This document shows positions 38,351-57,085 of a stretch of 64,000 nucleotides of DNA, in pieces. Position 1 is the stretch's first letter, and every line of letters begins with the position of its first letter. The position numbers were made by a program, and so were the translations under genes. The stretch covers positions 1 through 64,000 of the IMG/VR virus record IMGVR_UViG_2627853687_000001. One strand, given 5' to 3'. The DNA is from a virus (taxonomy: Duplodnaviria > Caudoviricetes). The notes below the pieces were generated by a model, which was not told where the DNA came from, made no database searches, and saw nothing but the letters and a program-made list of their open reading frames with translations.

Positions 38351-38748
38351 GTACTGCTCCGCTTGAATTAACTACAAGCAATTCTAAGGATTGTATAATT
38401 CGAGCAAGTGCGAACGGCGTAAATATCGCCATTATTAGGAGGTATGAGCGGGTATTCAGGACAAATCCGTGTGCAAAAAGTGTTTAGCTAAACTGGTTGG
38501 TGGCTTTATCCGGGAGAGAAGATTGTAGCGCTGGCAGTATCTGGCAGTGGTTGCGGCGGTGAATGTCAGTACCATTGATTAATATATCTTCTGGCCGGGC
38601 ATGGGCGCGAATCCAGATGCTTTACTTAGAGTTTCAATCAAATCAGGCGGGCTGATAGTGCCGGATGAGGGTTTTCACCCGGCAGGAGCTGAATCAGGCA
38701 GTCAGTGGATGCTTTTCAGGCAGTGGCTTACCACACTGGACCATAAAG

Positions 38749-40385: not shown

Positions 40386-40525
40386 GTGGTGGCCGGTGCC
40401 ATATCCGGCAAGTAACCCCTCAAGTGACTGGTCAACCTGGTTACTGGCGGCTTTAACCCCTGTGTACGCGACTGAAGAAGCGGGGGCCAGTCTTGCGATC
40501 GCAGCAGCAACTGCGAATGCACCAC
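40386..40525 (-). ncRNA. tRNA-like RNA module E2
   Basis: GTGGTG...CACCAC closing stem, TCGCAG/CTGCGA arm, GCCGG-ATATGGCA-CCGGC T-like arm. Confidence 0.55.
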
Positions 40526-40602
40526 AACGGATAGAGCACTGACCATTCCTAGTCCAATGGCGCTCTGCGCAAAGCATCAATGCTCTTTCCTGTTAGTGTG
40601 CC

Positions 40603-40731
40603 TTATTTGCGGCGCTGCTTCTTCCTGCCGCCGCTTACCGCCTTGATGAATGTCTCGATGGCATAGATGGCCACCAGCGCATAAATCACGGTGAGAAACG
40701 GGTGCTCTGCAGCAAACTCTGATAACGACAT
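40603..40731 (-). CDS. 42-aa single-TM peptide within the RNA array
   Basis: MSLSEFAAEHPFLTVIYALVAIYAIETFIKAVSGGRKKQRRK*, AGGA RBS. Confidence 0.6.
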   Translation of the reverse strand: MSLSEFAAEHPFLTVIYALVAIYAIETFIKAVSGGRKKQRRK

Positions 40732-40786
40732 ATCGCGTCCTGTCGTGGGAAATGAGGTTGTTGTGATCGTTTTCCGTTAGCGCGAT

Positions 40787-40925
40787 TGTTCCATGAGGCG
40801 GGACTTAAACCCGCTTTGCTTTCGCAGCCCATCGCTGACCGCCTGTGTTGATTCACAGACAAGGCTTTCGCCCCGTGGATTCCAGATCCACAACTCCTAC
40901 GGTGTGTGAAAGCGATCACCACAAC
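40787..40925 (-). ncRNA. Structured RNA module E3
   Basis: GGC-GAAA-GCC and GC-GAAA-GC tetraloops, CTGTG/CACAG and GTGGA/TCCAC stems, T-like arm GCGGG-TTTAAGT-CCCGC. Confidence 0.5.
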
Positions 40926-41104
40926 GGTCGAGAACACTGAGCAACCACGCGCCAGTTGTTATTTCAGTCACCTGCCAGTGTCCTCGCCGTTATGGGCTGG
41001 ACTTTCCCAGCAGTCACGGCGTGTTGAGGTCTGCCGATACCCTGCCCCGCCACCAGCCAAATTAGCCAGTAAACAGGGCATCGCCTGGTGTTGACGTGTA
41101 ATGC

Positions 41105-41222
41105 ATGGGGGGCTGGTGCCACCAGCTGTCCGATACGGAATCTACGGACGGGTCATGTAAAGGAATTTGCAAAGCGTCAGGTAACTGTTCCGTCCCACGT
41201 GCGCACAGCCGCATTCCCCCAT
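41105..41222 (-). ncRNA. tRNA-like RNA module E4
   Basis: ATGGGGG/CCCCCAT closing stem, GCTGG-TGGCA-CCAGC T-like arm; preceded by a perfect 17-bp stem at 41221-41297. Confidence 0.55.
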
Positions 41223-41471
41223 TTGTGAGCGCGCTGACAGAGGTAATCTTTCGCCAAACGCCAGTAAAACGACAGAAGCATCAGCGCGCTCACAAATAGT
41301 GATCCCTTACGAGGATCAGGCGGGAACATGTTTAAGCCTCATGGGGCGTTCTATGCGCGGGATTAGTCCATCAACCGCGTTCACTGCCATGACAGGAGGG
41401 GCTACTTGCCGTTCACCCTACTCATAACACACCCGGAAAAAGCTAATAACCGGGTGCGGCCCGTTACGAAC

Positions 41472-41535
41472 TGGTGCAGGTTGGCGGAATTGAACCGCCG
41501 ACAATGGAACACTCTACCGACTGAGCTAAACCTGC
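41472..41535 (-). tRNA. tRNA-like gene lacking the anticodon arm (64 nt, CCA end)
   Basis: GCAGGTT-TA-GCTCAGTCGGTAGAGT-GTTCCATTGTC-GGCGG TTCAATT CCGCC-AACCTGC-A-CCA. Confidence 0.75.
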
Positions 41536-41970
41536 TGAATAATTGCCGGTGCATACCCGGCGCGGACACTTAGGTATCTGGTCAACCTGCCCGCTTGCGG
41601 TAACAAATAGGTGTGGAGGCACCTGCCAGATTTGCATTGCGTTTGCCTCGCTGCCGAAGCGTTTCCCCGTTTCAGCCGTCAGCACACCTTGATGCGCTCA
41701 CGGCTGAGCCTGGAAAAAAGGCCCGGAAACTACCGGGCATAAAATCCTACACACACAGCAAAGCCTACTCTGGAATAGACTTTGATTTGTGAAAAAATGC
41801 GGATTAAACAGACAGTTATGCCTAACCCGCCAAATGCCTATCATGATTTTGTATAGAGCCGAGATGCCCTTGTCAGCGGGGAGAAATGTACACAAAATGG
41901 AGTTATGAAGCAATGAAAATCTAAGAGTTTTCTTAGATTTTCAAAGCAAAAGAAGGGAGGTATGTGAGAG

Positions 41971-43260
41971 TTAGCGGCGCTTTACTTTCGGGTTTGTAAT
42001 GTTCTCAATATCGCCGTTGGCTTTCGCCCATTTTATACACCAGCTGTTCACGGCAGCGCGGATCTCCATCACAGAAGCCTCGCTTAACCCCTTCACTTTC
42101 GCCAGCTCAGCAGGGAGCTCGCCACCAGCATCGGCAACCGTCTCATATCCGGCCTTAGTCAGTGCGTTAAGGGCGCGTGTCGGTATGACCAGCTCGGAGA
42201 CCGGCGAGGCTTTGCCGTCCAGAATGCGCTGGTGGAGACGTGGGAAATCCTGCGCTATGCGCTTCATGATGCGTGCGTGGAGCTCGTCGTTAACAGCGGT
42301 ATCCCACATCGGCTCAAGTTCAGGCAGCAGACGGAATACCGGATTGCCCCATATACCTGGCACTACATCCATTGCAAGCATCATCGCGGTGCGGATCTGG
42401 AAATGGAAATCAGCCATTTCAATAGAGACGTCGCGGATGCCGTGGAAGACGCTCAGACCAAAGTGGAAGTTGTAGATGTAGCAGCCCACGTCACCGGAGC
42501 CGTCCGGCAGCTGAAGCAGGAACTGCTGCACGTCTTCCCGGCCATCGTGGAAATCGACACGCTCTTTCAGGTGGTTATATAGCGCGGTTGTCTTAAGCAG
42601 GTCGTTAGCCGTCTCTGCGCGCAGGCGACGCTCATCGCCTACAACCTTATCCGCAATGTTCAGTTTGCTCTGTAAGTCCTGGCGTTTAACGCTTTCCTTT
42701 TTGCGGTCAGCGCGCATCTGCGAAATGGTTTTGTCCCGCTCGTTCAGGTCAGTTGCCAGGCGTTCAGGGTGCTTACGGCGGTACTGCGTGTGCTCCTGAT
42801 TCAGCGTGGCCAGCGCCAGCTGCGCGGTCGTCAGGGCGGACTCCATATTCTGTAGCTTCGTTTCCGCTCTGATTGCCCGGTTCTCTGCTTCCAGCACGCT
42901 TTCTTTTGCCGCGTCTCTGGCTTCTTCAATGGCGTTCTGCGCATCGAGACGGATTTTCGTTATTTCGTTGTGGAGTGCGGACTGCGCGGCCAGCTGCTGC
43001 TGTACCTGCTCCAGCGCCTCGAACATCAGATTGTAGGTATCCGCTTCATAATTGAGGCGCAAACCGATATCGATCTGGATCTGCTCCAGCGCGTTAGTGC
43101 AGTTATCAAGAAGGCGCAGCTCCAGGTCATCGAGCGTCAGGCGTTTACGGACGGAATTAAGCTGGCCGTAGGCGGTGACAAAGGCCTGGTGAAGTACATC
43201 GTCATCAACGTTGCATTCAGGGAGATTTTGCAGCTGCTGGAGTGGAGCGAGAGTTGTCAT
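41971..43260 (-). CDS. pmgS: P1 PmgS-like coiled-coil protein with alpha-CTD-like HhH C-terminus
   Basis: RKRLTLDDL..RLLDN..NYEADTYN resembles PmgS; C-terminal LVIPTRALNALTKAGYETV..LAKVKGLSEASVMEI. Confidence 0.7.
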   Translation of the reverse strand: MTTLAPLQQLQNLPECNVDDDVLHQAFVTAYGQLNSVRKRLTLDDLELRLLDNCTNALEQIQIDIGLRLNYEADTYNLMFEALEQVQQQLAAQSALHNEITKIRLDAQNAIEEARDAAKESVLEAENRAIRAETKLQNMESALTTAQLALATLNQEHTQYRRKHPERLATDLNERDKTISQMRADRKKESVKRQDLQSKLNIADKVVGDERRLRAETANDLLKTTALYNHLKERVDFHDGREDVQQFLLQLPDGSGDVGCYIYNFHFGLSVFHGIRDVSIEMADFHFQIRTAMMLAMDVVPGIWGNPVFRLLPELEPMWDTAVNDELHARIMKRIAQDFPRLHQRILDGKASPVSELVIPTRALNALTKAGYETVADAGGELPAELAKVKGLSEASVMEIRAAVNSWCIKWAKANGDIENITNPKVKRR

Positions 43261-56655: not shown

Positions 56656-56709
56656 GAAATGCTCCTTGTGCGAAAAGAAGCGTCACTACAGGAGGTTCCA
56701 ATCTCCGGG

Positions 56710-56788
56710 TGGTGACGTTGACAGGGTTGGAACTACCGGTGCACAAGAAAACCGGCCTACCCGAAGGTAGCCCCACCAACGCCACCAT
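56710..56788 (-). ncRNA. c4: c4 antisense RNA
   Basis: Three-stem junction: TGGTGGCGTTGGTGGGG/CCCTGTCAACGTCACCA, CTACC-TTCG-GGTAG, CCGG-loop a'-CCGG, b' GTTCCAA; flanked by a1b1 and a2b2 targets. Confidence 0.85.
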
Positions 56789-57085
56789 AGATACGCCCGG
56801 AATAATCCGGACGTGGTAGCGCCGAAGGCACTATGTGCCAGTTCTCATGCTTTTACAGGGTTCCAAGCCTGGCCGCTGAATCTCTTCTGCGGCGCGCACA
56901 CTATATCTGCCGTGCTGATAAATTCAATATGTCTCATGTGAAATTAACCACTGGTCATTAGATCCAGACGAGATTAAAGAATCGCTAACCCCATAAATTA
57001 CAACCTTTCTACCATCCCACCGTGCAGGCAATCGCCAGCGCTGCCGCCGCTTTTCGGGGCATCCCAACGAATTTAAGAGGAAGTT

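Follow-up and report, generated by a model that had tools for sequence, protein, structure and literature searches.

The locus and its genomic setting

The window (the whole stretch of DNA that was analysed) covers the initial 64 kb of a virus record of 92,860 bp that is rated complete. The nearest relatives of the record are 87–95-kb non-mobilizable Pantoea plasmids with ParM, Lpa, VRR-NUC, and PmgS-like genes, and a 429-aa protein encoded upstream of the element described here matches the PmgS-like protein of Escherichia phage D6. For these reasons, the record is regarded as a D6/P1-like phage-plasmid (Pantoea, 92.9 kb). The window also encodes a C4 antisense RNA, which is the immunity RNA of P1/P7-type phages. 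The features discussed below are collected in Table 1.

Some 1.2 kb with no annotated gene separates the PmgS-like gene from the ORF of a 42-aa membrane protein, one of the tiny membrane proteins of the leader, and the element lies in this gap. It is surrounded by hairpins. The leader hairpin has a counterpart ahead of trnA in both P1 and D6, and the trailer hairpin shows compensatory changes in relatives (CCTGG/CCAGG in loci L019, L028, and L029); the latter may serve in processing or as a weak terminator. When positions 40500–42000 were scanned permissively for other Rfam families, only weak matches at chance level appeared (Plastid-ycf2 on the opposite strand, 26.8 bits vs 65.7; RyhB, 17.5 vs 55), and the DicF model was not reported at the conserved core. 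In the rest of the virus record beyond the window, ARAGORN and Rfam found no further tRNA or Rfam family, and the element is the sole tRNA-like gene in the 92,860 bp.

Other structured features are present in the conserved block. Downstream of the element, there is a perfect 17-bp inverted repeat, ATTTGTGAGCGCGCTGA (41221–41237 / 41281–41297), with arms that are 43 nt apart. Positions 40770–40960 of the minus strand form a strongly folded multi-branch region that is closed by a long stem and holds a T-arm-like hairpin, GCGGG-TTTAAGT-CCCGC (about 40798–40814). The sequence CAGTGTTCTC..GTTGTGGTG of this region is also found in D6, in the interval from trnT to tRNA-Ser, and the region could possibly be another degenerate tRNA-like RNA.

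Table 1. Features of the window around the element and elsewhere, with positions in the window.
Feature	Position	Strand	Basis or remark
64-nt RNA gene without anticodon arm (allele A), tRNA-Thr-derived by alignment	41535 to 41472	minus	anatomy, Rfam, fold, tRNA-Thr alignment
Allele A acceptor stem	41535–41529 / 41482–41476	minus	
Allele A D arm	41526–41511	minus	
Allele A linker	41510–41500	minus	
Allele A T arm	41499–41483	minus	
Allele A discriminator	41475	minus	
Allele A CCA, encoded	41474–41472	minus	
PmgS-like head-morphogenesis protein, 429 aa	41971..43260	minus	relatives' annotation: RNA polymerase alpha C-terminal domain
Perfect 13-bp inverted repeat overlapping promoter-like TTGAAA-15-TAGATT	41914..41943	promoter-like on minus	just past the PmgS-like stop
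Intrinsic-terminator-like hairpin, then T run	41799..41830	minus	upstream of the element
Second intrinsic-terminator-like hairpin, GCCCGG-TAGTTT-CCGGGC, then T run	41721..41738	minus	
Non-coding hairpin-rich block, about 1 kb around the element	40780..41740	minus	conservation among 19 relatives
Conserved core CAGGTTGACCAGATACCTAAGTG	41567..41589	minus	homologous to the 'dicF-like' region of the P1 ban-operon leader
Leader hairpin GCCGG-GTATGCA-CCGGC	41545..41561	minus	10 nt before the element; invariant in all relatives
Trailer hairpin CACCCGG-13 nt-CCGGGTG	41430..41456	minus	16 nt past the CCA
Small hydrophobic protein ORF, 42 aa, basic tail	40603–40731	minus	hypothetical in pEuc3
C4 antisense RNA	56705–56792	minus	Rfam, 84.2 bits

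Anatomy and fold of the element

The element has the upper half of a tRNA in full. In the RNA sense, its acceptor stem consists of GCAGGUU and AACCUGC (GCAGGTT / AACCTGC in the DNA), and all seven pairs are formed. U8 and A9 stand between this stem and the D stem, GCUC/GAGU (GCTC/GAGT), which contains a G10-U25 wobble and encloses the loop AGTCGGTA (AGUCGGUA as RNA). The T arm is GGCGG-UUCAAUU-CCGCC (GGCGG-TTCAATT-CCGCC), and A73 is the discriminator. The D arm is joined to the T arm by just 11 nt, GTTCCATTGTC (GUUCCAUUGUC as RNA), where about 23 nt would be expected. The preliminary description had reported a perfect acceptor stem, D and T arms, discriminator A, an encoded CCA, an 11-nt join, and no anticodon arm at 41472–41535. 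Every one of these details was recovered; the strand had to be corrected, as the gene is on the minus strand.

The Rfam tRNA model (RF00005) scores the element at 49 bits against a gathering score of 29, with an E value of 1.9e-7 for the window. Its alignment matches all tRNA parts except the anticodon arm, where 15 model positions are reduced to 3 nt. The 7-bp acceptor stem, the D arm with G18 and G19, the T arm with a TTCRA loop, and the discriminator are all present, and the anticodon stem (5 bp, 7-nt loop, U33, and anticodon) is absent. ARAGORN, which had been proposed as a check, called no tRNA anywhere in the 64-kb window, the element included. The minimum-energy fold consists precisely of the acceptor, D, and T helices (−21.7 kcal/mol, z −3.13), and none of 200 shuffled sequences folded as well. 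An assembly error was considered and rejected, as the same or a near-identical sequence occurs in independent complete plasmids and in many metagenome contigs. The element is a real, inherited gene, and an artefact is excluded.

Ancestry and synteny with P1 and D6

When phage records were searched in distant mode with the 64 nt, 12 records were returned, all with stretches of 76 nt, and six of them are annotated as tRNA-Thr. Aligned with the tRNA-Thr(UGU) genes of D6 and two Klebsiella phages, the element has one 12-nt gap. Missing are the loop of the anticodon arm and the 3' strand of its stem, of which the 5' strand is still recognisable (TTCC vs CTTC in tRNA-Thr). Pair 3:70 covaries between the element and the phage tRNA-Thr genes (C-G, A-U, and U-A). 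Judged by these alignments, the element is a tRNA-Thr(UGU) gene minus 12 nt. Since the anticodon loop is among the nucleotides that are gone, the element is unable to read codons.

The surroundings of the element were compared with P1, for which the facts were taken from the GenBank annotation, and with D6. The order in the P1 record is Pban/Obanab, the dicF-like region, trnA, trnT, tciABC, trnI, and ban, and the ban-operon promoters P1ban/P2ban are annotated under the divalent C1 operator. In D6, the interval from the pmgS-like gene to tciA holds tRNA-Asn, tRNA-Thr, and tRNA-Ser, all on the same strand. The leader in the window aligns with the dicF-like core of P1 (CAGGTTGACCA...CCTAAGTG) and also with the hairpin that precedes trnA in P1 and D6. 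Three properties by which orthology with trnT was judged, namely position, leader, and tRNA-Thr genes as the closest sequences, were all found in the element. Its location and strand, taken relative to the pmgS-like gene, leader hairpin, dicF-like core, and tci genes, agree with those of trnT in P1 and D6, and within the gene, the GCNGGTT acceptor pattern, the D arm, a TGTC variable loop, the T arm, and ACCA are common to all. The element differs in lacking the 12 nt with the anticodon; at its locus, the neighbouring trnA (tRNA-Asn) is gone, as is a stretch of about 0.5 kb that would separate the dicF-like core from the tRNA. By synteny, the element occupies the place of trnT in the local counterpart of the leader of the P1 ban operon. 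With the locus as query, neither near nor distant DNA searches of the phage collection gave a match, and nor did a near-mode search of E. coli genomes.

In D6 (L030:8100–8190) and P1 (L263:17503 onward), trnT is followed directly by a long hairpin, GGTAAGGGTA...TACCCTTACC, which encloses the T-arm-like GGGTTCGAATCCC. This is an unannotated further tRNA-like fragment.

A single deletion accounts for the anatomy of the element, and from this follows one alternative: it may be an inert relic of a tRNA-Thr that was useless in Pantoea hosts, was disabled by one 12-nt deletion, and is otherwise intact through low divergence. We regard this reading as rather unlikely, and the evidence on it is taken up with the relatives, the substitutions, and the viral look-alikes below.

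Relatives and the two alleles

Related loci were collected by exact-word scans with the flanks and from plasmid matches, which yielded 25 besides the window; scans of genomes and metagenomes added 11 further loci (six with allele A and five with allele B), several of which are contigs already in the viral collection. Thirteen of the 25 carry allele A (seven distinct sequences, including that of the window), and 12 carry allele B, which is 73 nt long (also seven distinct sequences). Thus, all 36 loci with the same flanks have one allele or the other, and a full-length tRNA was found in none of them. A full-length tRNA in close relatives had been named beforehand as the finding that would overturn the description of the element, and one or the other of the two armless alleles proved to be kept throughout; at the syntenic site, full-length tRNAs occur only in distant relatives (P1, D6, and an E. 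coli D6-like plasmid).

The flanks of the two alleles are the same: the shared sequence runs up to ATTCA 5' of the element and resumes at GTTCGTAAC 3' of it. In allele B, the acceptor stem is GCAUGGG/CCCAUGC and is accompanied by a D arm of the class II type, a T arm, and ACCA; a canonical anticodon arm is lacking. The bodies of A and B are different, yet the first three acceptor pairs and A73 are common to both. The only full-length relative of allele B is an 86-nt tRNA at the syntenic site of the 91-kb E. coli D6-like plasmid, which is called tRNA-Arg by PGAP and Val by ARAGORN and has the acceptor stem and D arm of allele B. Relative to this tRNA, allele B is missing 12–15 nt that cover the anticodon loop in either plausible alignment, with exact borders that are uncertain. 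Since A and B are each without the anticodon region of a different tRNA, two tRNA frames have acquired the lesion at a single locus. Moreover, allele B is found in L003-type flanks in L020, and allele A is found in mixed flanks in L028 and L075. Each allele therefore occurs in more than one flank background and has persisted through recombination. Both observations weigh against an inert relic: two different tRNA frames at one site have each lost the anticodon region and nothing else, and neither allele has been lost in 36 related loci despite recombination into different flanks.

Two further explanations of the element can be considered. The first is that the element acts in trans as a tRNA mimic. 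The functional product would be a mature, CCA-ended 64-nt RNA, uncleavable at an anticodon and unusable in translation, that ties up a host factor recognising the upper half of a tRNA; EF-Tu, a synthetase, an enzyme that modifies 3' ends, and a defence nuclease or toxin directed at tRNAs are examples. Two alleles in near-identical flanks are what would be expected under diversifying selection, and all elements of the upper half of a mature tRNA are kept, including the discriminator and the encoded CCA. On the other hand, the common GCA/TGC ends of the alleles may just mark recombination junctions, no tRNA-targeting system or partner gene adjoins the element in annotated relatives, and no such decoy was found described in open-access papers and preprints. 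Anticodon nucleases generally need the anticodon loop for recognition, which also counts against a mimic. We consider this explanation unlikely. The second is that the sequence serves as DNA, as a recombination or integration target for mobile elements. The sharp borders of the A/B cassette swap at the acceptor ends would fit such a target, and mobile elements commonly integrate at tRNA genes. However, neither an integrase nor an insertion lies next to the element in any annotated relative, and changes that preserve pairing suggest a constraint on the RNA, so that a role at the DNA level is very improbable.

Several candidates that emerged from the searches were rejected. ARAGORN calls allele B a tRNA-Phe in two of three P. 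agglomerans plasmids (L002 and L005), with the anticodon at position 28; that reading would require absence of the D arm, a stem of 4 bp, and an A where U33 belongs, and the Rfam tRNA model stays below threshold for it on L002. Eight loci (L026 with its relatives L251, L260, and L261, and also L246, L247, L248, and L257) have only the 20-nt hairpin word in common and are unrelated chance matches; the genome and metagenome scans gave seven chance matches. Odd tRNA-like genes accompany allele A in plasmids of the PSNIH1 type (L003:3662–3748 and L003:1769–1876, both on the minus strand, and likewise in L006). They score 50 and 46 bits in Rfam, their anticodon arms are longer by 9 and 35 nt, and ARAGORN names one of them tRNA-Stop(UUA). 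At the locus, L006 (CP060164.1) equals the Pantoea sp. PSNIH1 plasmid in identity, coverage, and element, and it is filed as Acinetobacter venetianus, which indicates either a wide host range or a wrong host label.

Conservation and selection on the fold

Among the allele A sequences, standard pairs occupy 98.2% of pair cells, as compared with 34–42% in controls with slid partners. One acceptor pair of allele A is altered on both sides, from U-A to C-G, in two distinct sequences, and a T-stem pair of allele B is changed from C-G to U-A in L029. The window and the L003 form differ at seven positions. All 16 pairs survive that number of changes by chance in 7% of simulations (p about 0.07), and in 3.5% when ACCA must survive as well.

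Weakening changes are also present. They occur in four of the seven distinct allele A sequences (T-stem mismatches in L018 and L019, G19C in L024, and CCA to TCA in L028/L075) and in allele B (a T-stem mismatch in L014 and a D-loop G to T in L021). Block 41740–40780 is mostly 0.85–0.99 identical per 30-nt bin among 19 relatives, as against 0.80–0.89 in adjacent coding sequence, and the element is no better conserved than its flanks. It is in fact the least conserved 30-nt bin of the block because of the A/B allele swap. These data speak for a relic, as little time would have elapsed at such identity, the substitutions are merely marginally non-random, and weakening variants are tolerated in both alleles. 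The earlier argument that preserved stems speak against random decay is therefore weaker than it seems: the stems are kept, but the whole block has diverged little and the p value is about 0.07. Direct evidence of selection on the fold is weak, and the case for selection as a whole is moderate. The main argument for a function is not conservation; it is that the anticodon region, and nothing else, has been lost repeatedly and that both alleles have been retained.

Transcription signals around the element

No sigma-70-like promoter was found between the upstream terminator-like hairpins and the element by a promoter tool and a looser script, and co-transcription with the neighbours is therefore inferred. 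The lack of an own promoter is in line with an inert relic and counts against a trans-acting mimic, for which the hairpins close behind the element, as at the end of a small-RNA gene, are a favourable sign. A candidate upstream promoter overlaps the inverted repeat at 41914–41943. The arms of this repeat are conserved and its spacer is variable. The script finds it in nine of 13 loci; in a tenth (L014) it is cut by the extract, and it is absent from three L003-type loci. A related half-site lies at 38624–38636, upstream of lpa; four matches were obtained where 1.05 were expected, and one of 100 shuffles reached four. The repeat may be a repressor operator with an early promoter, like Obanab/Pban of P1, and it could equally be the terminator of the PmgS-like gene. 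As two terminator-like hairpins stand between this candidate promoter and the element, read-through is an assumption. The first of them, at 41799..41830, is possibly the end of a small RNA.

Five public runs that are labelled RNA (X1–X5) contain the stretch. X1 and X4 each have a single 98,191-nt contig that spans all of it, and such whole-plasmid contigs demonstrate DNA, not transcription; the runs behave like DNA libraries or have heavy DNA carry-over. The plasmid from X1/X4 is 97% identical (53 differences over 1701 nt), and among the differences listed, none falls inside the 64 nt.

Armless tRNA look-alikes in other viral contigs

IMG/VR viral contigs were searched with the motif GCTCAGTNGGNAGAG-N{6,20}-GGTTCRANTCC, which is a D arm followed by a T arm. 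In a normal tRNA, 27 nt are found at the N position of the motif. The search found 103 viral-contig stretches. Outside the Pantoea family, 95 loci could be scored: the acceptor stem pairs at 7/7 in the canonical register in 65 loci, at 6/7 in 11, and at fewer positions in 19. The 65 look-alikes with a perfect acceptor comprise 56 distinct sequences and 50 distinct acceptor strands (among L031–L127, e.g., L040, L060, L082, and L103). ARAGORN called a tRNA in none of the 65, and armless tRNA genes are missed by standard tRNA finders. An encoded CCA is present in just four. Ordinary tRNA genes lie within 1 kb of 22 look-alikes, always on the same strand, and the other 43 have no tRNA within that distance.

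The spacing between the D and T arms is 12 nt in 36 cases, 13 nt in 17, 14 nt in 8, 15 nt in 7, 16–18 nt in 7, 19–20 nt in 19, 21 nt in 3, and 22 nt in 8, and a second spacing scan gave at least 43 cases at 23 nt. Spacings of 12–13 nt account for 53 of 96 matches, with troughs at 16–18 and 21 nt. The peak followed by a trough indicates that complete removal of the arm is a distinct mode. No smooth decay series is seen, which is a further point against relics. Large families of 70–73-nt tRNA-like genes, in which the anticodon region is 3–5 nt short, were also noticed (L129–L241, e.g., L135, L141, and L164); their spacing is 22–24 nt, e.g., GCAGACG...ACCGCACCAGGAGGTATG...ACCA, and many come from one metagenome project.

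In T7-like contigs, the look-alike is located 46 nt past the major capsid gene (six loci) or between the scaffold and capsid genes (three loci), and in nine other loci, the large terminase gene is 0.25–1.6 kb away. The intercistronic siting in unrelated T7-like contigs counts for a role in RNA processing. The occurrence of armless look-alikes in many unrelated phages, most of them without a tRNA nearby, would also be consistent with trans-acting mimics. In the strongest form of that idea, the look-alikes are widespread selected phage small RNAs, uncleavable and non-decoding mimics of the tRNA upper half that act in trans by occupying defence enzymes directed at tRNAs or other host factors, and the A/B pair, with both alleles kept in recombining plasmids, is the trace of an arms race. 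We find this form quite unlikely. Genomically encoded armless tRNA look-alikes in phages were not described in the open-access papers and preprints that were searched. With 65 well-formed look-alikes and 50 acceptor stems from one narrow motif, phages may have a considerable class of non-coding RNAs that has gone unrecognised.

A proposed processing module in an early-operon leader

The reading that we favour, with somewhat less than even confidence, is that the element is a non-decoding processing module recognised by RNase P. For RNase P, the acceptor/T-arm helix and the D/T elbow are needed, and in enterobacteria RCCA at the end is needed as well. The element keeps each of these parts; only the decoding part, which is dispensable for processing, is gone, and a processing role is therefore the likeliest. 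A processing signal was one of the options in the preliminary description, beside a decoy and a sponge, and it is the one that the context favours, through the trnT position in a ban-leader homologue and the lack of an own promoter.

This reading starts from what was observed (the anatomy, ancestry, and synteny of the element, its persistence among relatives, and the existence of a second such allele) and adds the following steps. The element would be transcribed within the polycistronic, hairpin-rich leader RNA of an early operon, where it would have been kept as a tRNA-shaped module directly 3' of the dicF-like core and the leader hairpin. Host RNase P would recognise the elbow of the acceptor, T, and D arms together with RCCA and would cut at the 5' end of the element. 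The cut at 41535 would also make the 3' end of an upstream dicF-like small RNA; in P1, the dicF-like RNA has a terminator hairpin of its own, at which it ends. Ordinary trimming of tRNA 3' ends, here at the CCA, would then release the downstream RNA. The decoding part would thus have been removed and everything that the processing enzymes require retained, presumably to the benefit of the phage.

The C4 precursor of P1/P7 is an RNase P substrate (Hartmann 1995, cited in the available text of PMC11143913 and PMC5499578) and a C4 RNA is encoded in the window, so this phage family already relies on RNase P. Two further points stand against a processing module. A pure cutting signal has no obvious need of two maintained alleles, and RNase P of the E. 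coli type can cut simpler hairpins, as noted in the available part of PMC5499578. The most economical reading is that a familiar type of device, the tRNA-shaped processing signal, is present in a context for which it is undescribed.

If this is true, temperate enterobacterial phages reuse former tRNA genes as RNA punctuation in regulatory leaders. The same reuse is known in plant mitochondria (t-elements) and mammalian nuclei (mascRNA), and no description in phages was found in the literature searched. Should the RNA instead target tRNA-binding host factors in trans, phages would have a counter-measure of a new kind. The Pantoea locus is well suited to tests because it offers cultured carriers, two natural alleles, and full-length counterparts in P1 and D6.

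Comparison with known tRNA-like RNAs

Three known RNAs were examined and set aside. The module of YrlA, a bacterial Y RNA, is a tRNA-like domain that is closed at the acceptor end and joined to the Ro-binding stem. The acceptor ends of the element are free, and the window has no YrlA match. The tRNA-like domain of tmRNA is processed by RNase P; including its domain-only mitochondrial form, it is, like the element, an upper-half mimic without an anticodon and with a CCA end. However, it has the G3:U70 alanine identity pair and no D stem, whereas the element has A3-U70 and a normal 4-bp D arm, and neither ARAGORN nor Rfam reported a tmRNA. The M3 RNA of phage phi80 was rejected as a precedent, since it is a hairpin-type RNase P substrate without a T loop, according to the available text of PMC5499578.

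A tRNA-like upper half without a functional anticodon arm, the mark of t-elements and of mascRNA-type RNAs, is found in the element. The t-elements of plant mitochondria, as the available part of PMC5499578 describes for Arabidopsis nad6, are degenerate tRNAs that serve in cis as signals for RNase P and/or RNase Z at mRNA ends, and the nad6 t-element is an acceptor/T-arm mimic that is also without an anticodon arm. They are organellar and usually more degenerate, whereas the element belongs to a phage and its cleavage is only proposed.

The original report of mascRNA is said to be that of Wilusz in 2008. In the available text of PMC8457004 and PMC4824109, mascRNA is a tRNA-like module of about 60 nt in the long non-coding RNA MALAT1, with a similar tRNA-like RNA in MEN-beta, and the RNase P cut at its 5' end makes the mature 3' end of the upstream RNA. 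It is mammalian and nuclear, it has no recognisable tRNA-gene ancestor of known identity, and its CCA is added, whereas the CCA of the element is encoded.
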